Shown here piece after piece: positions 1,209-9,638 of a stretch of DNA of 64,000 nt. This DNA comes from Planctomycetia bacterium. GTDB taxonomy: Bacteria; Planctomycetota; JAJSAM01; JAJVHW01. The notes below the pieces were generated by a model, which searched no databases, was not told where the DNA came from, and saw only the letters and a list, made by a program, of their open reading frames with translations. The stretch lies in assembly GCA_031404455.1 (NCBI GenBank), contig JANNHP010000212.1:3419-67418 (forward strand), read 5' to 3'. Each line of letters starts with the position of its first letter. The first letter of the stretch is position 1. A program made the translations under genes and the position numbers.

Positions 1209-2855
1209 TCACTTCTCGACGCACTTCCCGCCGGTGTCGGCCGCGAGGCCCTTCATGAACGCCGGATCGGCGCCTTCGTTGCCGTCCTTCGACGTCGCCG
1301 CGCCGACGAACGCGACCGCGTGGATCGCGATGCGGCGGGACCGGTTCCAGTCCTTCACCGAGCCGCGGATGAGATCGGGGTCGGTGATCTTGCCGACCGA
1401 GGGTTTGCCGTCGGACAGGAAGACGATCGTGTCCACGCGCGCGTCGCCCGTCGGGTCGGACTCGCGCTTCTTGCCCTTGCCCATGTCGCCGAGCGCGAAC
1501 GCGGCCTCGAGCGCGTCGTAGGTGTTCGTGCCGCCGGCGAACTCGACTCCTGCGATGAACTGCAGCGCCTCGCCGCGCGACTTGCCGTCGGCCTTCTGCA
1601 TGTCCGGCTTCCAGACACGCACGCCGCTCGAGAAGAACACGATGTTGAAGATCGTGCCGTCCTCCAGAGCCGCGACGACGCGCTTCAGCTCCTCGCGCGC
1701 GAGCTCGGCGCGCGACGACTTCGCGTCCGGTCCGTTGCCGCCCATCTTCGCGTTCATCGATCCCGAGATGTCGATGACGAAGACGACCCGCTTGCTCTCG
1801 ATCTGGATTCCGAAGAAGCCCGTCTTGCGGTCCGACTCGGCCGGCTTCTTGCCCAGGTCCTTGAACGGGTCGGGTCCCTTCGCGGTGTCCTCGGCGGGCG
1901 GCTTGCCTGTCCACTTGTCGCGATTCTGCTCCCACCAGACGCGCCAGATCTCCGGGTTCGCCGCGAGGTCCTGCCCCGTCAGCGCCTGCAGTGCGCGGCG
2001 GCAGTCGTCCTTGAGGCGGCCCTCCTCCTTCACCATCCGCTTGACGATCGCGTCGATTCCCTCCTTCGACGGCGTCTTCTCGAGCGCCGCGACGACGGAC
2101 GCGCGCACGAGCCATCTCACGTCTTCCATCCGCGCGGCGAGCGCGGGACCCACCTTCGCCGCGTCGCGGCCGCCGAGCCCGTCGATGGCGATGATCAGCG
2201 CGCGCGGATCGGGCTCCGTGTTCGTCGCCGGGGAGACCGCGGCGGTGAGCATCTCGGTCGCCCAGTCGGTCGCGACGTGGCCGAGCAGCTCGTAGCCCTC
2301 GGCGCGAACCATCCAGTCCTTCGAGCCGATCCGGTTCTTCGTCCAGTCCTCGCGGACGGCCTTCTGCGCCTCGGGCGGGAGCTTCGCGACGAGCGTTCCG
2401 TGTGCGGTGAGGAGTTCCGTGAGGACGGACTGCTGCGCCGCGACGAGCTTCTCGGCGTTGGTGACGTCCGCGCTGAGCGCGAGGTGCTCGTCGTCCTCGG
2501 GCCAACGCGGCCGCGAATCCGGGAGTGGCTTGCCCTGCTTCTTGAACTGGTCGAAGTAGTCCTGCTGCTTCTTCAGGATCTTCGCCTCGACCGGCGCCAG
2601 CGCCGCGCGGGCCTTGTCGACCTTCTCCTTCGCGTCCTCGATCGCCGACTTCGAGACGCCGGCGCACCACTGCAGCGCCTTCATCGCCTCGGGCTTGCCC
2701 GTCGCGACGAGCGCCTGGATCACGTCCTGCTTCACGGAGGCGCCGGCGCCCTTCGTGTACCGCTGCTGGTACTCCGACAGGATGTCGCCGGCGAAGGCCG
2801 AGAGCGCCAGCGCGGCGATCGCAGCGAACCCTGAGAGCAGTTTCGCGAGTCTCAT
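1209..2855 (-). CDS. Secreted HEAT-like + von Willebrand factor A (VWA) domain protein
   Basis: Signal peptide MRLAKLLSGFAAIAALALSAFA. The C-terminal VWA domain has the MIDAS motif DISGSM. The N-terminal helical region ends in LTGQDLAANPEIWRVWWEQN. ATG 2853-2855 is preceded by GGAGGAGG and forms an ATGA overlap with the upstream gene. Confidence 0.85.
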   Translation of the reverse strand: MRLAKLLSGFAAIAALALSAFAGDILSEYQQRYTKGAGASVKQDVIQALVATGKPEAMKALQWCAGVSKSAIEDAKEKVDKARAALAPVEAKILKKQQDYFDQFKKQGKPLPDSRPRWPEDDEHLALSADVTNAEKLVAAQQSVLTELLTAHGTLVAKLPPEAQKAVREDWTKNRIGSKDWMVRAEGYELLGHVATDWATEMLTAAVSPATNTEPDPRALIIAIDGLGGRDAAKVGPALAARMEDVRWLVRASVVAALEKTPSKEGIDAIVKRMVKEEGRLKDDCRRALQALTGQDLAANPEIWRVWWEQNRDKWTGKPPAEDTAKGPDPFKDLGKKPAESDRKTGFFGIQIESKRVVFVIDISGSMNAKMGGNGPDAKSSRAELAREELKRVVAALEDGTIFNIVFFSSGVRVWKPDMQKADGKSRGEALQFIAGVEFAGGTNTYDALEAAFALGDMGKGKKRESDPTGDARVDTIVFLSDGKPSVGKITDPDLIRGSVKDWNRSRRIAIHAVAFVGAATSKDGNEGADPAFMKGLAADTGGKCVEK

Positions 2856-4033
2856 GGCTTGCCTCCTCCGGCGGGCTCCCCGGCGAGCGGTTCGCCGAGA
2901 GACGCCTCGGCGCCCTCGACGTAGACCTCGGTGTCGTCGATGCCGTCCACCTCGCGGCGGAGCAGGAAGTACGTGTCAGTGAGCCCGCCGACGAAGTACG
3001 AGAGAACGTAACCGTTCACGACGATCGTTGCGAGCGCGGTGATCGCCCACGCGACGTAGACCCACATGACGGGCAGGCCGTCGAACTTCTCCACCTGCGG
3101 CCAGCCGAGGACGCCGCCCGGCTTCATGCCCACGTCGATGCCGCCCCCGATCGCGCGCGCGGCGTCGATGGGCGCCGAAGGATCGGAGGCCCAGCTCGCG
3201 CCGAACATCATCGCGCGGGCGGCGATCGCGATCAGCGCTGCGCCGAACGCGGCGATCACGCCCGCGACGACCGTGACGAGCACGACCGACACGAGGTACG
3301 CGACCGGCTTCGTGAACACGTACGAGAACGTGCGGCTGATGGCGTCGAGCGTGCCGTTCTTCTCCGTCGCGAGCGCCGCCTGCATCACGGGCAGCCCGAA
3401 GATGCCGCCGATCGCGAGGATGAGCACCACGAGCGCCGCAACGAGCGCGAGCGGCTGCATCACGATCTGCAGGAACGGCCCCGCGCCCGGGATCGCGCTC
3501 GCCGCGCCAGCAGCGGCGGCGAGTCCGAGGAAGAGCGCCGCGGCGGCCGCGACGAAGAGCGGCGCCAGGAGGAACTGCTTCAGGTTCGAGATCGAGAACG
3601 AGAGCCCCTCGCCCGCGCCGATGCTCTCGTCCCTCGCGATGCGGACGGCGTAGACGCGGGAGATGGCGCCCGCGACGATCGACCAGAGGACGAGCAGCCA
3701 GACTCCGACCACCGCGTACTTCCACCACGGAAGCTGCGGGTCGTAGGCCGGCCCGTCCCGCAGTCGGATCTGGCCGAGCGAGCCGACGAGTCCGTGGATG
3801 TGATTCGTGTACGGCAGGCCGGTCCAGCCGAGCACGCGGTCGAAGAAGGCGGACCTGAGCCCGATCCAGGCTGGCACCCCCCCCACCTCGGGGACTGCGA
3901 GGATCGAGGCCAGCGCCGGCCAACTGAGCTGGTACGCGAGCCACCCGAAGGCACCGAGGGCGAGCGCCGAGAGGTCGAAATCGACGCGGGGCGCACGCAG
4001 AACCGTGCGCTGGCGCTCGGCCGTCTCGGCCAT
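2852..4033 (-). CDS. Polytopic inner-membrane protein of unknown family, translationally coupled to the VWA protein
   Basis: 393 aa with about 8 hydrophobic helices. ATG 4031-4033 is preceded by AAGGAGGA. Its stop overlaps the VWA start (ATGA at 2852-2855). Confidence 0.8.
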   Translation of the reverse strand: MAETAERQRTVLRAPRVDFDLSALALGAFGWLAYQLSWPALASILAVPEVGGVPAWIGLRSAFFDRVLGWTGLPYTNHIHGLVGSLGQIRLRDGPAYDPQLPWWKYAVVGVWLLVLWSIVAGAISRVYAVRIARDESIGAGEGLSFSISNLKQFLLAPLFVAAAAALFLGLAAAAGAASAIPGAGPFLQIVMQPLALVAALVVLILAIGGIFGLPVMQAALATEKNGTLDAISRTFSYVFTKPVAYLVSVVLVTVVAGVIAAFGAALIAIAARAMMFGASWASDPSAPIDAARAIGGGIDVGMKPGGVLGWPQVEKFDGLPVMWVYVAWAITALATIVVNGYVLSYFVGGLTDTYFLLRREVDGIDDTEVYVEGAEASLGEPLAGEPAGGGKP

Positions 4034-4163
4034 GGGGACTCCTCCTTCAGGTCGGGGACCGGCCGGCCTGCCGGTCGCGGGGACCGGAAGAGGCTACCGA
4101 AGGCTCAACTCCCGGCCAGAGGCTTCCGATAGGGAGGACGTCCGCCGGACAAGAGGAGTTCCC

Positions 4164-4550
4164 ATGACCGTCAGTGACCTGGCCTTCCACCTGTCCGTCC
4201 GAGACCTCGACGGCGGCGCGGTGTCGGTCCTCCAGATCAAGGACGCCTTCCTGAACTACGCCTCGTCCGACGAGCTGAAGACCAACATCAAGGCCGTCTG
4301 CCGCGAGCGCATCCACCGCGGCGTCAAGGGCTTCGCGGTCGACGTGTCCCGCGTGACGGTGATGGACTCCTGTGGCCTCTCGGTGCTCATCAGCATCAAG
4401 AAGCTCGTCGAGTCGGAAGGCGCGCGAATGGCCCTCTGCGGGCTCTCGCCGATGATCAAGCGCCTCTTCGAGATCACGAAGCTCGAGCAGGTGTTCGAGA
4501 TCCGCGCCGACGAGCAGGCCGCGGTCGTGTCGCTCAGCGCCACCGCATAG
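4164..4550 (+). CDS. STAS-domain protein (anti-sigma-factor antagonist family, SpoIIAA/RsbV-like)
   Basis: ATG at 4164 is preceded by AAGAGGAG (4151-4158). The sequence VDVSRVTVMDSCGLSVLISIKK...LCGLSPMIKRLFEITKLEQVFEI matches the STAS fold signature, including the DSxG phospho-serine region. The longer listed ORF (3807..) is an N-terminal shadow. Confidence 0.85.
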   Translation: MTVSDLAFHLSVRDLDGGAVSVLQIKDAFLNYASSDELKTNIKAVCRERIHRGVKGFAVDVSRVTVMDSCGLSVLISIKKLVESEGARMALCGLSPMIKRLFEITKLEQVFEIRADEQAAVVSLSATA

Positions 4551-4562
4551 CGCCGATCGGCG

Positions 4563-5252
4563 TCACGTCTCGCCGGAGTCCGTGTCTCCCCCGCCGCCGC
4601 CCGAGAGCTGCGGCTCGAGGCGCATGCGCAGCCGCCGGCGGATCGTCGGCCCGAACCAGTTGACGTCGTACTTGCGGCGCCTCAGCCATTCGTGGCGCTT
4701 GCACTCGGTGCGGTCCGGGACGGCGGCGAGACCGTGGTGCTCGTGCTCGAGGTCGAGCACGGTCTCGACGTGCGAGCAGTGCTCGACGCCGAGGTCCGCG
4801 AGGATCCGCTCGAACGGCTCGACGTCCGCCGAGAAGAGCGACAGGAGCTTGTGGTCGTCGAGGAACACCTCGAGCGGCGAGTCCGGGTCGTAGAAGCCGA
4901 AGCCGACCATGCCGTCGTGCAGGATCTGGAACCGGTAGCGCGCGAGCACCGACGCGACTTCGCCGCGCGGCACGAGGGCGGAGACGAAACGGTCCTGCGC
5001 TGGACCGTCGGGATCCTCGTCCATGGCCTCCTCGCTCCGCCTGAGCTCCAGCACGGCGTGGCAGTGCGGCGGCATGAGCGCGAGCGCCGCGTCGAGGACG
5101 CGCTCGACGCGCAGCACGCTGAGCTGCGCGTAGAAGAAGTGGTGCGGCGGATCGTCGCCGTCGCGCCAGTGGAGCTCGTAGCCCTCGCAGAGCTCGCGCC
5201 GCGATTCGGCTTCGAGGTGCAGACCGACGGGGAAGACGTATTCGCAGACCAT
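4563..5252 (-). CDS. Hypothetical protein (229 aa, no recognisable family), last gene of the SRAP-baeRF operon
   Basis: ATG at 5250-5252 lies 23 nt after the baeRF stop. Composition is non-shadow-like with His/Cys patches (PPHCHAV, EHCSHVE, LEHEHH) and a basic tail. Confidence 0.65.
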   Translation of the reverse strand: MVCEYVFPVGLHLEAESRRELCEGYELHWRDGDDPPHHFFYAQLSVLRVERVLDAALALMPPHCHAVLELRRSEEAMDEDPDGPAQDRFVSALVPRGEVASVLARYRFQILHDGMVGFGFYDPDSPLEVFLDDHKLLSLFSADVEPFERILADLGVEHCSHVETVLDLEHEHHGLAAVPDRTECKRHEWLRRRKYDVNWFGPTIRRRLRMRLEPQLSGGGGGDTDSGET

Positions 5253-5275
5253 GGCGGGGGGACGCGGAGTCTAGC

Positions 5276-6406
5276 TCACCAACGCAGCACGGCGGCAACC
5301 GGAGATTTCGTCGGCATGCGCTGCCTCTCGACGACGAGCACCTCGCCGCCGCGCGCGAGGACAGCGCCCGCGAGGTCGTCGAGGACGTCGTCGCCGAACG
5401 CGTCCTCGCGCGCCGCGCGCTTCCTCACCTCGCCGGTCACACGGTCGAAGACGCCGCGCACGATCCGCCCTCGCGCGATGAGCAGACGCCGCACGCGCCC
5501 CGCGACCGCGGCCGCGGCCACGATCTCGAGATCGTCCGACGAGCGTTGCGCGCCGTTCAGCCGCTGGTACTCCTCGACGGCCTGCGACTCGCTGGCTTTC
5601 AGCGCCGCGTCCGCGATCGGTGCGGCCCTCTCGTGGATCGCGTCGGGCTTCGCGCGGCCGAAGTTGCCCTCCACGCCCTCAGGGGCGATGTACGAGTAGC
5701 GGCTCACCGCGCGGTACGCCGACTGCAACCGTGCGGCGCCCGCGAGGACCAGCGGCGAGTGCTCGTCGCGGAGCTGCGCGCAGATCGCCTGATCCACGGC
5801 GCGGAACCAGCGGGCCACGTCCTCGCGCGCGGACCGCGGCTCACCCGATGCGTGGAACACCCGCCGCCCGCCCCCCGCCGAGTGCGATGAGAGTCCCGGT
5901 TTCTCGTGGCCGGCGATGTCGGCCTCCTCCGGAGTGCCGGGCATGCCTTCGACGTCCTTCGCCGAGAGCCCCGAGGGAGTTCCCTCGAAGAACGACGCGG
6001 CACCCGCCGTGAGCGAGAGCACGCACCACCTGCGCTCCGACTGCAGGTAGCGGATGAGCGGGCGCACGTGGAACGTGTCGGACACGATGACGCGCTCCGG
6101 CAGCTCCATCGCCACGCGCCAGTGGCGCAGGAAACCGGGCGCCGCGAAGACGGCGAGTCCGTCGAGCGAGTCGCGCCAGAACTCGGACCCGAGGTACGGG
6201 GCGAAGGGCTCGACGAGGCGCGGCACCGCGCGAGGATTGATCACCGCCTCGAGCTTCCGCTTCACCTCGTCCACGATGTTCTTGAAGCGCAGACGGTCCT
6301 CCGTCGCCCCGTCGGCGCGGCGGTGCGTCGGGAGGAAGACCGAGATGCACGGTCCCTTGCGCTCGCCGAGGAGCTCCTGCAGGTCGCCGACGGTGAACGG
6401 ACGCAT
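5276..6406 (-). CDS. Bacterial archaeo-eukaryotic release-factor-like (baeRF, eRF1-fold) family protein; family number uncertain
   Basis: N-terminus MRPFTVGDLQELLGERKGPCISVFLPTHRRADGATEDRLRFKNIVDE and C-terminus ...PVAAVLRW match, from memory, the conserved ends of baeRF3-type proteins. ATG is preceded by AAGGAGG. The gene lies 24 nt downstream of the SRAP gene. Confidence 0.7.
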   Translation of the reverse strand: MRPFTVGDLQELLGERKGPCISVFLPTHRRADGATEDRLRFKNIVDEVKRKLEAVINPRAVPRLVEPFAPYLGSEFWRDSLDGLAVFAAPGFLRHWRVAMELPERVIVSDTFHVRPLIRYLQSERRWCVLSLTAGAASFFEGTPSGLSAKDVEGMPGTPEEADIAGHEKPGLSSHSAGGGRRVFHASGEPRSAREDVARWFRAVDQAICAQLRDEHSPLVLAGAARLQSAYRAVSRYSYIAPEGVEGNFGRAKPDAIHERAAPIADAALKASESQAVEEYQRLNGAQRSSDDLEIVAAAAVAGRVRRLLIARGRIVRGVFDRVTGEVRKRAAREDAFGDDVLDDLAGAVLARGGEVLVVERQRMPTKSPVAAVLRW

Positions 6407-6430
6407 GGTCTCGAACCTCCTTGGACTCGA

Positions 6431-7126
6431 TCAGGGCGCATCGGGCGGCCCCGGCGGGACGGCCGGGGCGGCACAGCTCGGACCCTCGTGCCGGGGATCG
6501 TTGACGGCCGGACCGACGGGGACGCACGTCATGCTCGAGGTGCGCGCGGGAACGAAGAGCGACTCAAGTCGCACGTACGAGTCGATTCGCGGATCGAGCC
6601 AGGTGGCGTGGTCGCCTGGCTCGACGACGACGGGCATCCGGTCGTGCACGCGCGCCACGAGCTCGTTCGCCGCGGTCGTCAGGATCGTGAAGGTGACGAG
6701 CGGCTCCGCGGCGCCGGCACCCCGCCACGTCTCCCAGAGGCCCGCGAACGCGAACACCTTCCCGCCGCCCTTGCGGAAGATCCACGCCCGCTTGTGTCCG
6801 GGCTCCCCCGTCCACTCGTAGAAGCCCGTCACGGGGACGAGACACCGGCGGCGCCGCAGCGCGGAGCGGAACGACGGCTTCGTCGCGACGGTCTCGCTGC
6901 GCGCATTGATCATCCGCGAGCCGACCTTCGGGTCGTCGGCCCAGCTCGGCACGAGTCCCCAGCGGACGAGATCGAGCCGCCGCGTGCCGTCCTCCGCGGC
7001 GCGCACGACCGGGAGCATCTGCGTCGGCGCGGCGTTCCACCTCGGCGCCAGCCGGGGCATCTCCGCCAGTGCGAACACCTCCGCGAGATCCTCGGGCGGC
7101 GCATCGATCTCGTAGCGGGCGCACAT
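6431..7126 (-). CDS. yedK: SOS-response-associated peptidase (SRAP / YedK / HMCES family), abasic-site DNA-protein crosslinking enzyme
   Basis: Starts MCARY (catalytic Cys2) at ATG 7124-7126. Contains RWNAAPTQ, VRWGLVPSW, INARSETV, RRCLVP..GFYEW and HDRMPVV motifs. The listed ORF extends to 7357 only because it reads antisense through the tRNA gene. Confidence 0.9.
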   Translation of the reverse strand: MCARYEIDAPPEDLAEVFALAEMPRLAPRWNAAPTQMLPVVRAAEDGTRRLDLVRWGLVPSWADDPKVGSRMINARSETVATKPSFRSALRRRRCLVPVTGFYEWTGEPGHKRAWIFRKGGGKVFAFAGLWETWRGAGAAEPLVTFTILTTAANELVARVHDRMPVVVEPGDHATWLDPRIDSYVRLESLFVPARTSSMTCVPVGPAVNDPRHEGPSCAAPAVPPGPPDAP

Positions 7127-7281
7127 GTCGGCCGAGAGGCTACGGTGCCGCGCGGCAAAGTCACACCGGTTGCCGCGAAGGCGCGCGGCGGTCCCGCGAC
7201 GCCGACGGTTCACCACCGGTGCGCGATGTGTTTTTCGTGCCGCACGCCGCGTGGCGTCTCCCACAATCCGGCCACGCCGGA

Positions 7282-7356
7282 GCGGGCGTAACTCAGTGGC
7301 AGAGTGGCAGCTTCCCAAGCTGTCTGTCGAGGGTTCGATCCCCTTCGCCCGCTCCA
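7282..7356 (+). tRNA. tRNA-Gly (anticodon CCC), CCA encoded
   Basis: Manual cloverleaf. Acceptor GCGGGCG/CGCCCGC, D-stem ACTC/GAGT, anticodon stem GCAGC/GCTGT with loop TTCCCAA (anticodon CCC), T-arm GAGGG-TTCGATC-CCCTT, discriminator T, then CCA. Confidence 0.9.
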
Positions 7357-7592
7357 AGGCAACCTCCCGCGTGTCGCGGAGTTACGACGACTCGCGCCGG
7401 GCACCGAAAACGCGCTCGGACCGGATGGCTACCTCCATGGCTACCTCCCGCGACGTCTGGCGCGAGGTCTGGCGGCGCTGAGCGTCGCCGCAGACGAGTG
7501 TCAACTGACGGCGGACTATCACGCTGCGCGATGGTTGATCTTCCCGTCCACGCCACGCGCGACACGACCTGCTCGACAGGTACGATCACGTC

Positions 7593-7946
7593 GTGTCTCA
7601 CACGTCCCTCGTCGACGCTGCCCGTGACGTCGCGCATCGCGTGGCGTCGGGTGCGCCGGCCGGCGACTGGACCGCTCCCGAGACGACCCTCGCGATGCTG
7701 ATCTCCGTGTACGGGGATCCGTCCAAGCTCGGCGGCACGAAGCCCCTCGCCGACAAGACGCGACGGCAGCACCCGGCCGTCGTGGCGGTGGCCCACGCCA
7801 TCGGCCGCACGCAGGACGCCGTGGTGATGAAGGTGATGAACCTCCGCTCGACTCTGACCAAGGGCGCGCGCGGGCTGCCCCACGCGGCCAAGTTGGAGCG
7901 CACCACGGTGGACCGCCAAGACGGGCGGAAGTGTCCCCTCGCCTAG
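7593..7946 (+). CDS. Small hypothetical protein (117 aa) immediately upstream of darT
   Basis: GTG start. Third codon positions are almost all G/C in this frame. The segment IGRTQDAVVMKVMNLRS weakly resembles the N-terminal helical module found in some HNH/restriction-like proteins, but there is no nuclease domain. Confidence 0.5.
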   Translation: MSHTSLVDAARDVAHRVASGAPAGDWTAPETTLAMLISVYGDPSKLGGTKPLADKTRRQHPAVVAVAHAIGRTQDAVVMKVMNLRSTLTKGARGLPHAAKLERTTVDRQDGRKCPLA

Positions 7947-7997
7947 GTAGCATCTGGCTGCGGCGCTTGGGTCGGGCGCGCAGAGGAGCGTCTCACG

Positions 7998-8588
7998 ATG
8001 GGGAAGTTGCCGAGGGACTTCGCGCAGGTGTTCCACCTGACGGACTTGGCAAACCTCGCTGGCATCGTTGCTCATGGAGTCCTCTGCCGCGCGGAGCTCA
8101 GTCGCCGACGCATCGGCTTCGGCGACGTCGCCGACGCTGGCATCCTCGAGGGACGAAGTGCGCACGGACTCGATGCGTGCGTCCCGTTCCACTTCTTCCC
8201 GAAGAACCCGTTCGACGGGAGGGTCATGAAGGACCGGCCGGGCACTGTCTTCGTCTTGCTCGCGGTGAGCCGCGCGACCGCACGGGCGCAGCACTGGCGC
8301 GTGATCCCGCGCCATCCGCTCTCGGATCGGGAGACCCCGCAGGTTCTTGCGTGGGACGCCGGACTTGCGGCGATCGACTGGATCAAGATGGAGCCGGGAC
8401 CGAAACGCGACTACCACGACGCCGACATCAGGCGGGCGTGCATGGCGGAAGCGCTCGGCCCGTCGTGTGTTCCGCTCGCCGACGTCCAATCGATCTACGT
8501 CCACGACGAGAAGGTGCAGACGGTCGTACTGAATCTGCTCGGAGGTGGAACGCGTCCGCACGTGAACATCGCCCCCTGGTGGGTGTAG
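7998..8588 (+). CDS. darT: DarT (DUF4433) ssDNA thymidine ADP-ribosyltransferase toxin
   Basis: ATG is preceded by AGAGGAG. Contains FHLTDLANLAGIVAHGVL, VPFHFFPKNPF and RRACMAEALG...IYVHDE, matching DarT/DUF4433 conserved blocks. It is followed 9 nt later by a macrodomain gene. Confidence 0.85.
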   Translation: MGKLPRDFAQVFHLTDLANLAGIVAHGVLCRAELSRRRIGFGDVADAGILEGRSAHGLDACVPFHFFPKNPFDGRVMKDRPGTVFVLLAVSRATARAQHWRVIPRHPLSDRETPQVLAWDAGLAAIDWIKMEPGPKRDYHDADIRRACMAEALGPSCVPLADVQSIYVHDEKVQTVVLNLLGGGTRPHVNIAPWWV

Positions 8589-8597
8589 TATCCGACC

Positions 8598-9638
8598 GTG
8601 ATCCGCTTCGTACGCGGCAACCTGTTCGAGAGCCAGGCGGAGGCTCTCGTGAACACCGTCAATTGCGTCGGTGTCATGGGCAAGGGCATCGCCCATCAGT
8701 TCCAGCGCGCGTACCCCGCGATGTTTGCGGACTACAGCCGCCGCTGTCGCGCGGGGACCGTGCGCCTCGGCGAAGTGACGACGTTTCCCGAGCGCGGGAA
8801 GCTGATCGTGAACTTCCCGACGAAGAACCACTGGAAGGCACGATCGCGGATCGAGGACATCGGGGCGGGCTTGCGCGCGCTCGCCGCGCTGATCACGGAC
8901 GCCCACGTCCGCTCGATCGCGATCCCGCCGCTCGGCTGCGGCAACGGTGGTCTCGACTGGAACGACGTCCGCCCCGTCATCGAACGCGAACTCGGCGCAC
9001 TCGCCGACGTGGAAATCACAGTGTTCGAACCCGTCGGCACGTTCAAGTCCGCGGTCGCGAAGGAACCCCGGGTGTCCCTCGGCCACTTCGTCCTCGCGGC
9101 GCTCGCGACGCACATCCGCAAGAAGCTCGCGCTTCAGAAGGCCTCGTACTTCTTCAACGTGTTCGCCGGCGAGCCGTACTTCAAGTTCACGCAGGCGAAG
9201 TTCGGCCCCTACTTCGTCGGGATGGACCCGATGCTCCAGGAACTCGCCGACTACCGCGACTTCACCAAGTTGGCGCGCGAGCAGATCGTTGAGGACGGCA
9301 TCCAGCGGAAGCTCGCGGGCGCCGACGTCGATCGCCTTCGAAACTGGCTTCCCGTCATCGACCGCACGGTGGACTTCGTTCAGCGACACTCGAACGACAT
9401 TGAGGCGCTCGCGACTGCGCACGCCGTCATCTCGCAGTCCCCGTCGTCGAGCGACGAGCAGGTCGTAACTCGGTTCCTCGCGTGGTCCACCGAGAAGGCG
9501 GAACGGTTCGAACGCGCCGACGTGCTCGCAGCCCTGCGGACTCTGGAGGAGGAGCACCTGGTCGTCCGATCGCTCTACGGCTATCAGGTCGGAACGCCGC
9601 CCCCGCGAACCACCGTCCCCGCATCGACCGACAGTTGA
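8598..9638 (+). CDS. darG: DarG antitoxin (N-terminal macrodomain ADP-ribosylglycohydrolase + C-terminal DarT-binding domain)
   Basis: GTG start. The macrodomain signature is MIRFVRGNLFESQAEALVNTVNCVGVMGKGIA...NFPTKNHW...PPLGCGNGGL. The roughly 200-aa C-terminal helical domain is as in DarG. Confidence 0.85.
   Translation: MIRFVRGNLFESQAEALVNTVNCVGVMGKGIAHQFQRAYPAMFADYSRRCRAGTVRLGEVTTFPERGKLIVNFPTKNHWKARSRIEDIGAGLRALAALITDAHVRSIAIPPLGCGNGGLDWNDVRPVIERELGALADVEITVFEPVGTFKSAVAKEPRVSLGHFVLAALATHIRKKLALQKASYFFNVFAGEPYFKFTQAKFGPYFVGMDPMLQELADYRDFTKLAREQIVEDGIQRKLAGADVDRLRNWLPVIDRTVDFVQRHSNDIEALATAHAVISQSPSSSDEQVVTRFLAWSTEKAERFERADVLAALRTLEEEHLVVRSLYGYQVGTPPPRTTVPASTDS

Follow-up and report, generated by a model that had tools for sequence, protein, structure and literature searches.

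The window analysed here, a stretch of 64,000 nucleotides of high-GC (70%) planctomycete DNA, contains three co-directional genes on the minus strand, with positions, strand and lengths as given in the original prediction. The first gene (6431..7126, 231 aa) encodes an SRAP protein of the YedK/HMCES type, a type that forms abasic-site DNA-protein crosslinks. The second (5276..6406, 376 aa) encodes a homologue of Balon from baeRF family 3, and the third (4563..5252, 229 aa) encodes a protein of an unnamed family, called P3 below. A tRNA-Gly(CCC) gene was located by ARAGORN at 7282..7356 on the plus strand, divergent from the SRAP gene and 155 nt from its start. Pfam, NCBIfam and PADLOC all recognised DarT and DarG, and the DarT gene begins at 7998, at a distance of 872 nt from the SRAP gene; both measured distances agree with the predicted values of 155 and about 870 nt. 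An ORF at 6431..7357 with a TTG start was rejected as an artefact running antisense over the tRNA gene, and the ATG at 7126 was taken as the true SRAP start. On the other side of P3, a STAS-domain gene of the anti-sigma-factor-antagonist type (4164..4550, plus strand; Pfam STAS, E 2e-16), whose start was set partly from the lengths of homologues, is convergent with P3, and the two stop codons are 12 nt apart. It is followed on the minus strand, co-directionally with P3, by genes for a multi-pass membrane protein of 393 aa without a Pfam family (2852..4033) and for a 548-aa protein with HEAT and VWA domains (1209..2855; Pfam VWA_2, VWA, VWA_3 and HEAT_2), which overlap by 4 nt.

Direct reading of the sequence gave spacers of 24 nt (6407..6430) between the SRAP and Balon-type genes and 23 nt between the Balon-type gene and P3, exactly as predicted. 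Shine-Dalgarno sites had been proposed within both spacers. The first was found to contain AAGGAGG at 6422..6416, 9 nt ahead of the ATG of the Balon-type gene, but no recognisable site was read in the second (GCTAGACTCCGCGTCCCCCCGCC, 5253..5275). A scan of positions 4000-8000 revealed no terminator-like site in either spacer and a single one inside the SRAP gene, which corresponds to chance level, and it returned no promoter-like site; in DNA of 70% GC, both the promoter and the terminator results are uninformative. Judging from spacing only, the three genes are probably co-transcribed in the window.

The SRAP protein was matched by Pfam PF02586 over profile positions 1-213 of 214 (E 8e-72, 241.6 bits versus a gathering score of 27.1). 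It opens with MCARY, in which the catalytic Cys2 directly follows the initiator Met, and its INARSET, GFYEW and HDRMP segments align with INARVET, GWFEW and HDRRP of YedK; equivalents of N75/R77, E105 and H160/R162 are all present. Its PDB relatives were 2f20, HMCES and YedK. The predicted identity of the first gene, an SRAP protein with Cys2 in place, was thereby confirmed over the full domain and extended to the remaining catalytic residues. In YedK and HMCES, abasic sites in ssDNA become covalently bound to the N-terminal Cys2 through a thiazolidine and are shielded. By analogy with this biochemistry, the protein encoded in the window, which shares with YedK and HMCES a similar size, the full-length domain and the Cys2, Asn/Arg, Glu and His/Arg residues, would crosslink to and shield such sites in the same way. 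Described SRAP neighbours include UmuCD, ImuA-ImuB-DnaE2, DinB, LexA and Ku-ligase (PMC3765255), whereas the gene studied here lies outside these SOS and mutagenesis contexts and is followed by the Balon-type gene and/or P3.

The 376-aa protein had been predicted to match baeRF families at its termini. Its test against baeRF profiles gave a match to baeRF_family3 (PF18845, E 7e-31) with 108.3 bits, above the gathering score of 31.5; the family assignment therefore stood, but the similarity was found to span the whole protein and to run along Balon from end to end. NCBIfam NF052287, "AOC03_06830 family ribosome hibernation factor", was matched over profile positions 1-361 of 361 (E 6e-47) with 160.8 bits, below the curated cut-off of 330. 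In phmmer comparison with PDB sequences, residues 11-376 aligned with residues 7-369 of Balon (8rd8_B, E 1.6e-20). The best Foldseek matches of the AF2 model (pLDDT 86.6) were the Balon structures 8rd8, 8rdv and 8rdw (E 1e-25, TM 0.62-0.67), and ranks 1-5 and 7 went to Balon, Msmeg1130 and Rv2629, with most aRF1/eRF1/Pelota structures placed lower. By sequence, the protein is thus a Balon homologue, although at 21-23% identity and under the cut-off it is not an equivalog by the NCBI rule. This shortfall (161 versus 330 bits) also counts somewhat against the reading of the locus as a string of stress genes, discussed below.

Like Balon, the homologue consists of three aeRF1-like domains and contains neither the GGQ string of peptide release nor the NIKS string of stop-codon recognition. 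The corresponding loop reads SAGGGRRVFH, and no Gln is conserved there in the family alignment. A disordered loop occupies the place of the lasso loop in the middle domain. The THREHP segment of Balon aligns with THRRAD, the family consensus being PTHRxxP, which leaves it uncertain whether the HP motif is conserved. Strands are predicted in the model at 317-320 and 327-329, and G318, D321 and G325 are nearly invariant; this part of the C-terminal domain may be a conserved beta-hairpin, a putative equivalent of the hairpin by which Balon contacts EF-Tu. The original prediction had described baeRF proteins as defined only computationally; this is outdated, since Balon has been experimentally characterised as an aeRF1-like ribosome hibernation factor, with examples in Psychrobacter urativorans (AOC03_06830) and mycobacteria (Msmeg1130, Rv2629) (Helena-Bueno et al., Nature 2024, PMC10901736). 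Because of the full-length similarity in sequence and fold to Balon, Msmeg1130 and Rv2629, the homologue would be expected to sit in the A site of the ribosome, not to catalyse peptide release of the GGQ type, and to bring about ribosome hibernation.

Balon genes are usually found in stress-response operons of varied composition, with RaiA, Hsp20, MarC, RtcB, OsmC/OsmY and HdeD among their published neighbours (PMC10901736). The homologue likewise sits among stress-type genes, but its neighbours SRAP and P3 are absent from the reported set; no RaiA gene was found among the window genes examined, and SRAP, YedK, SOS and Planctomycetes are not mentioned in two supplementary files of that paper. 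It also resembles the baeRF-1 clade in being a baeRF_family3 member and a predicted non-catalytic A-site binder without the catalytic Gln, an absence predicted for most families of baeRF proteins. However, the conserved association reported for that clade is with HPF/YfiA, and SRAP does not occur in the text concerned (0 occurrences; Burroughs and Aravind 2019, PMC6514570).

P3 was predicted to be assignable to no family, and this was upheld by every search. No match was found in Pfam, NCBIfam or PADLOC, a P3 profile gave only noise against PDB sequences (E >= 0.14), and the AF2 model (pLDDT 91.4, pTM 0.88), which has an alpha/beta fold, retrieved no match with E < 0.2 or TM > 0.3 from PDB and BFVD by Foldseek. 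The family comprises 59 clusters among 5.8 billion proteins, and all members with a readable source organism come from Planctomycetota MAGs. Profile searches added 379 remote relatives (50% clustering), a superfamily centred on Planctomycetota/Phycisphaerae; no Pfam domain covered the P3 region in 51 remote P3-like proteins and 10 long ones. A weak EF-Tu-domain-2 match of P0189 fell below the gathering score and was rejected as a link to translation. P3 is the sole truly novel element of the locus.

The invariant positions in the P3 alignment are H37, E69, R71, R88, H112-D113, GFG, E128, D132-D133-H134-K135 and H170-x-H172. Of the predicted clusters of His and Cys residues, only H37, H112, H134, H170 and H172 proved invariant across the family, and no cysteine is conserved. 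Because invariant His, Asp, Glu and Lys residues fall on alternate beta-strand positions, P3 may be a soluble metal-dependent enzyme, a suggestion that comes from residue conservation. Charged invariant residues in such positions are shared with triphosphate tunnel metalloenzymes (TTM/CYTH), which made up 8 of the 50 best P3 matches of Foldseek in PDB (7nsa, 7nsf, 7ns9, 3n0z, 3n10, 2gfg, 3sy3 and 4ckc). Nevertheless, these matches had only E 0.7-1.5, probability <= 0.08 and TM 0.12-0.23, and P3 has neither the ExExK motif nor a sequence-profile match to this group, so that the modelled kinship is a weak lead and not a match.

Synteny was compared in 15 related loci, of which 12 were counted as having a readable upstream side. 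The common order was tRNA-Gly(CCC), an optional DUF11/CLIPPER surface protein gene, SRAP, an optional Balon-type gene, P3, STAS on the opposite strand, and the membrane protein and HEAT/VWA genes. The complete SRAP-Balon-P3 set, present in the window, recurred in L002 and L027, and L009, L010 and L012, which are truncated upstream, showed Balon-P3. Seven loci (L001, L003, L004, L005, L006, L013 and L014) carried SRAP and P3 without a Balon-type gene, and two (L026 and L011) carried P3 with neither gene adjacent. Thus, the three genes do recur together in other genomes, so that neither of the refuting outcomes named in the original prediction, lack of a baeRF profile match or of co-occurrence elsewhere, arose, but they do not occur as a unit wherever P3 occurs, even among related loci: a Balon-type gene is present in about one-third of these, and SRAP is usually present. 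The tRNA-Gly(CCC) gene was also upstream in L001, L002, L004, L005, L006, L014, L026, where it lies about 80 nt from P3, and L027. A "tRNA-Ser" reported by ARAGORN within the Balon-type gene of L027 was treated as a false positive.

In a neighbour-joining tree of P3, the SRAP-P3 state was found in the deepest branches, and the Balon-type gene was scattered over two clades. The identity of the Balon homologues to that of the window (47-86%) tracked that of P3 (61-93%), and this, together with the scattered distribution, fits inheritance with repeated loss. Since the readable sources of P3 represent one lineage, descent and selection are not cleanly separable in this comparison. The nearest Balon homologues from elsewhere than this clade (37-45% identity) adjoin MarC, peptidases or a CDGSH protein, with no SRAP neighbour, and remote P3-like proteins adjoin CoaX and Secretin or other unrelated genes.

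The explanation with a slightly better than even chance of being correct is that the trio constitutes a loose, lineage-specific and vertically inherited string of probably co-transcribed stress genes whose products work in parallel. SRAP, the Balon homologue and P3 would most likely act side by side during growth arrest or damage and not as one machine; the Balon homologue would be an optional member of the string, and both it and SRAP could be missing. As seven loci lack the Balon-type gene and two lack both it and SRAP, the trio is probably not an obligate module, and it is probably not a defence or anti-phage system either.

It is unlikely, although conceivable, that SRAP and P3 form a functional pair in which P3 is an enzyme acting on the SRAP product, for example on the SRAP-DNA crosslink or the shielded abasic site, with the Balon homologue as a passenger. 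SRAP lies immediately upstream of P3 in the seven loci named above, only the Balon-type gene intervenes in the window, L002 and L027, and the deepest branches in which the SRAP-P3 state is found have P3 identities of 41-50%. The invariant His, Asp, Glu and Lys residues of P3 would be typical of a hydrolytic active site, and accessory metallopeptidases and Zn-binding proteins occur in some described SRAP operons (PMC3765255). However, L026 and L011 retain P3 without adjacent SRAP, no member of the P3-like superfamily adjoined SRAP in the six loci examined, and the membrane and VWA genes downstream are more constant companions of P3 than SRAP is. Moreover, the pairing is known from one lineage only, and synteny by descent therefore suffices to explain it.

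The faithful downstream neighbours could mean that P3 functions with the STAS gene, for a partner-switching protein, and the membrane and HEAT/VWA genes and that SRAP and Balon are mere upstream neighbours, a reading to which a similarly low probability was assigned. According to tblastn, every locus reaching that far has the membrane and VWA genes downstream of P3 and co-directional with it; the HEAT/VWA gene is kept in L001, L003-L006, L009, L011 and L026. STAS was found by tblastn in the same slot in about 10 loci (L001, L004, L005, L006, L008, L009, L011, L015 and L026, in the last of which Pfam STAS also confirmed it), and in Phycisphaerae it recurs near long P3-like paralogues, arranged as P3L-Secretin-STAS-HATPase_c_2. 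In L002, L003 and L013, the membrane and VWA genes directly succeed P3 without STAS, which favours their connection with P3 but leaves STAS missing in three loci, in addition to its position on the opposite strand. STAS genes are numerous in planctomycetes, and its recurrence may be due to chance. In the window, P3 and the membrane protein gene are about 530 nt apart, with a gene of opposite orientation between them, and no biochemical link can be named.

It is quite improbable that the three proteins form a tripartite module that arrests translation when abasic or ssDNA damage is sensed, with P3 as the signal-converting enzyme. Order, strand and Balon slot are the same in the window, L002 and L027 and partly so in L009, L010 and L012, with Balon identities of 47-78%. 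Contigs of matching length connect further clusters of Balon-type and P3 proteins. The spacers of 24 and 23 nt and the identical Balon slot in at least five other contigs could mean functional coupling, which is a point against a merely loose string. On the other hand, the SRAP-Balon spacers are longer elsewhere, roughly 80-140 nt in L027 and L002, the loci without the Balon-type gene or without both partners speak against a module, no such linkage was found outside the clade, and Balon is known from many different stress operons (PMC10901736). A more specific proposal, that P3 is a new enzyme fold and the dedicated partner of SRAP at the thiazolidine crosslink or abasic site, the Balon homologue having been recruited to their transcript to pause translation meanwhile, was likewise considered very unlikely.

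The DarTG pair lies on the 3' side of tRNA-Gly, and the trio lies on the 5' side within a syntenic chromosomal block. DarTG was absent from all 15 related loci, in which the trio or subsets of it nevertheless remain, and its GC content was 0.65-0.66 compared with 0.70-0.725, a genome-typical value, for the trio. PADLOC (E <= 0.1) matched only DarT and DarG and none of the three proteins. No integrase or transposase was found among the ORFs examined in the window, and when att-like copies of the tRNA 3' end were sought around DarTG, a single imperfect repeat of 20 nt turned up 81 nt away, which defined no island boundary. On the favoured reading, DarTG was acquired separately and is specific to the window, and the accessory or defence neighbourhood originally proposed for the trio was not borne out. 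DarT produces ADP-ribosylated ssDNA. Although the trio lies close to both a tRNA gene and a genuine DarT-DarG pair, and although SRAP too acts on ssDNA lesions, it is barely credible that a defence or conflict island integrated at tRNA-Gly carries it together with DarTG, a reading largely refuted by the PADLOC result, synteny, GC content and side of the tRNA.

If the trio is indeed a loose, inherited string of stress genes, SRAP and P3 represent one more neighbour set among the varied stress contexts of Balon, and a tRNA-proximal place beside DarTG does not make genes members of a defence island. If P3 is instead a dedicated partner of SRAP and the Balon homologue was recruited to their transcript, the locus would connect DNA-damage tolerance with ribosome hibernation in a way not described before. 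P3 is the element worth following: a protein of about 200 aa with a confident model, invariant His, Asp, Glu and Lys residues and no Pfam, PDB or viral fold match. Should its activity be directed at SRAP adducts, this would be relevant to the still unanswered question of how SRAP-DNA crosslinks are removed in bacteria, and any activity assigned to P3 would annotate the whole family.

The three genes lie on the minus strand of the window (70% GC) in the order SRAP gene (7126..6431, 231 aa), Balon-family gene (6406..5276, 376 aa) and P3 (5252..4563, 229 aa), the last from an unnamed family. Their ORFs are separated by 24 nt and 23 nt, respectively, and all three show a GC3 of 0.91-0.94, the coding signature of this genome. 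Shine-Dalgarno sites had been predicted in the spacers, which was true for one only: AAGGAGG was found in the first, nine bases 5' of the Balon-gene ATG, and the second (GCTAGACTCCGCGTCCCCCCGCC), read directly, contained no purine-rich site. From the spacing, we infer that the trio is co-transcribed in this genome. A tRNA-Gly(CCC) gene (7282..7356, plus strand) is divergent from the SRAP gene, 155 nt from its start; a longer, mechanically called ORF at 6431..7357 was rejected as an artefact, being an antisense read-through of this tRNA.

The first gene encodes a complete SRAP domain (Pfam PF02586, E 8e-72) with a Met-Cys N-terminus. Judged by alignment to E. coli YedK, its catalytic residues are intact, the active-site Asn/Arg, Glu and His/Arg being kept in INARSET, GFYEW and HDRMP. 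The second gene matched Pfam baeRF_family3 (E 7e-31), as predicted for 5276..6406, and aligned over the full length of NCBIfam NF052287 ("AOC03_06830 family ribosome hibernation factor"; E 6e-47), at a score under the equivalog cut-off (161 vs 330 bits). AOC03_06830 is Balon, a hibernation factor of the aeRF1-like type that was found on the ribosomes of Psychrobacter urativorans and has the mycobacterial homologues Msmeg1130 and Rv2629 (PMC10901736). Because the second gene belongs to this family, the earlier description of baeRF proteins as defined only computationally is out of date. The Balon chain of 8rd8 aligned with the window protein end to end (E 1.6e-20). When its AlphaFold model (pLDDT 86.6) was used in a structure search, three Balon entries ranked first (E 1e-25, TM 0.62-0.67), followed by Msmeg1130 and Rv2629, with aRF1, eRF1 and Pelota mostly after these. 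Neither GGQ nor NIKS occurs in the 376-aa sequence, and the loop at the corresponding region (about residues 166-189) was of low confidence in the model, as expected for the flexible lasso region of Balon. Sequence and predicted structure agree on a full-length Balon-like protein lacking release-factor motifs. Of two further Balon hallmarks, the HP motif is of uncertain conservation, THRRAD standing opposite Balon's THREHP, and strands predicted at 317-320 and 327-329 may correspond to the C-terminal hairpin. By analogy with the established biology of the two families, the SRAP protein would shield abasic sites in ssDNA, and the Balon-type protein would occupy the A site with EF-Tu.

P3 had no match in Pfam, NCBIfam or PADLOC, in agreement with the prediction that it fits no known family. 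In a search of 5.8 billion proteins, its family comprised only 59 clusters, all with at least 44% identity; six of seven genome loci came from Planctomycetota MAGs or shared their synteny, and the seventh belonged to a distant Nitrospinota relative. In the family alignment, H37, Q43, E69, R71, R88 and S91 were invariant, as were H112-D113, G117-F-G119, D122-P123, E128, D132-D133-H134-K135 and H170-x-H172. Of the His/Cys clusters noted originally, some histidines (H37, H112, H134, H170 and H172) were thus invariant, but the cysteines were not conserved. This residue set is probably catalytic, and P3 would be a metal-dependent enzyme. The AlphaFold model was confident (pLDDT 91.4, pTM 0.88); Foldseek searches of PDB and BFVD returned no match with an E-value under 0.2 or a TM over 0.3, and several triphosphate-tunnel/CYTH enzymes among these insignificant matches are a lead only. 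An exhaustive profile search found 379 remote relatives, mostly Phycisphaerae "hypothetical proteins" of 320-450 aa, and none of those scanned had a Pfam domain over the P3-like region. Only one remote relative, the 341-aa P0189, gave a weak match to EF-Tu domain 2, N-terminal to its P3-like domain; it scored 27.7 bits, against a gathering score of 30.3.

The window proteins and tRNAs were mapped onto 15 loci encoding P3 orthologues (numbered with the prefix L). The syntenic order was tRNA-Gly(CCC), often a DUF11/CLIPPER surface protein, SRAP, sometimes Balon, and P3, usually followed by a convergent STAS gene and then by a 393-aa membrane protein and a HEAT/VWA protein. The full SRAP-Balon-P3 order of the window was also present outside this genome, as predicted, in L002 and L027. 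Balon-P3 was found where the contig ended upstream (L009, L010, L012), SRAP-P3 without Balon in L001, L003, L004, L005, L006, L013 and L014, and P3 without either gene in L026, with tRNA-Gly ~80 nt from P3, and in L011, with an EF-hand protein instead. The presence of the trio genes is modular across loci. In a neighbour-joining P3 tree, the SRAP-P3 state occupied the deepest branches and Balon was scattered over two clades; Balon identities (47-86%) tracked those of P3 (61-93%), and about 10 further Balon and P3 clusters were linked by equal contig sizes. Inheritance of the string with repeated loss of Balon, or of SRAP plus Balon, is the simplest history.

The DUF11/CLIPPER-repeat protein lay between tRNA-Gly and SRAP in L001, L004, L006 and L027 (about 740-790 aa) and in L005 (shorter). 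Its gene is absent from the window and L014; therefore, the gene content of the tRNA-to-P3 interval varies. In the GC-rich DNA of L027, ARAGORN called a tRNA-Ser(CGA) at 7249-7337 within the Balon coding sequence; this call is probably spurious.

The linkage of SRAP, Balon and P3 is not general. The closest Balon homologues beyond the clade, from Acidobacteriota MAGs and metagenomic contigs (37-45% identity), neighboured MarC, M16 peptidases, a CDGSH protein or a two-component system. Published Balon neighbours include RaiA, Hsp20, MarC and RtcB, in contexts differing between phyla (PMC10901736), and those of SRAP are UmuCD, ImuAB-DnaE2, DinB, LexA and Ku (PMC3765255); neither source names the other family. 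Long P3-like paralogues had CoaX on one side and a Secretin on the other, with STAS and an RsbW-like kinase beyond the Secretin, and short remote P3-like proteins had unrelated contexts. The long-paralogue context (L016-L021, e.g. L018 5001-5993; Phycisphaerae, 320-450 aa) was strongly conserved, the genes being transcribed away from CoaX-GTPase-RluB-like genes and preceding a ~1100-aa Secretin; STAS and RsbW-like HATPase_c_2 genes followed Secretin in two of three genomes (L016/L017 and L020/L021, not L018/L019). At L029 4001-6284, the gene for an ADP-ribosylglycohydrolase (PF03747) lay two genes downstream of that for the short remote P3-like protein P0445; this single observation is curious because DarG in the window has a macrodomain.

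On balance, it is slightly more likely than not that the three are stress genes acting in parallel, within a string specific to this lineage. That SRAP and P3 form an enzyme pair is unlikely: in its favour, SRAP-P3 without Balon occupies the deepest branches of the tree, but against it P3 stands without SRAP in L026 and L011. Just as improbable is a role of P3 with the STAS/membrane/VWA side. Membrane and VWA genes lie past P3 in all related loci long enough to show them and are therefore more constant partners of P3 than SRAP or Balon; the STAS gene is only usual there. In the window, these genes (393 aa, no Pfam family, and HEAT+VWA, 548 aa) occupy 1209-4033 on the minus strand with a 4-nt overlap. 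A true tripartite module, with its full order in few loci, is more doubtful still.

The original prediction saw a defence-type neighbourhood. DarT (7998..8588) and DarG (8598..9638) near the trio and the tRNA were indeed confirmed by Pfam, NCBIfam and PADLOC, but PADLOC recognised these two only and none of the trio, and none of the 15 related loci had DarTG, which suggests that it was gained recently and locally. It is located 3' of tRNA-Gly, at a GC of 0.65-0.66 vs 0.69-0.72 around it (trio, 0.70-0.725), and the rest of the window, where sampled, carried genes ordinary for a planctomycete chromosome (sulfatase, cytochromes, SGNH hydrolase, DUFs). These findings indicate that the trio is core-like chromosomal DNA and DarTG a separate acquisition, and it is very improbable that the trio is defence cargo. 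An imperfect 20-nt direct repeat (7352-7371 / 7433-7452, 90%) takes in the 3' end of the tRNA, and the ORFs examined included no integrase. A coding-like 117-aa ORF at 7593-7946 (plus strand, GC3 0.91, no Pfam match) between tRNA-Gly and DarT may be a small gene that arrived with DarTG.

The SRAP and Balon genes are new members of known families. Balon genes are known to lie in stress clusters, and the position of this one next to SRAP is a new, if loose, instance of that. P3, truly without family assignment, is the part of the trio that deserves experimental follow-up.
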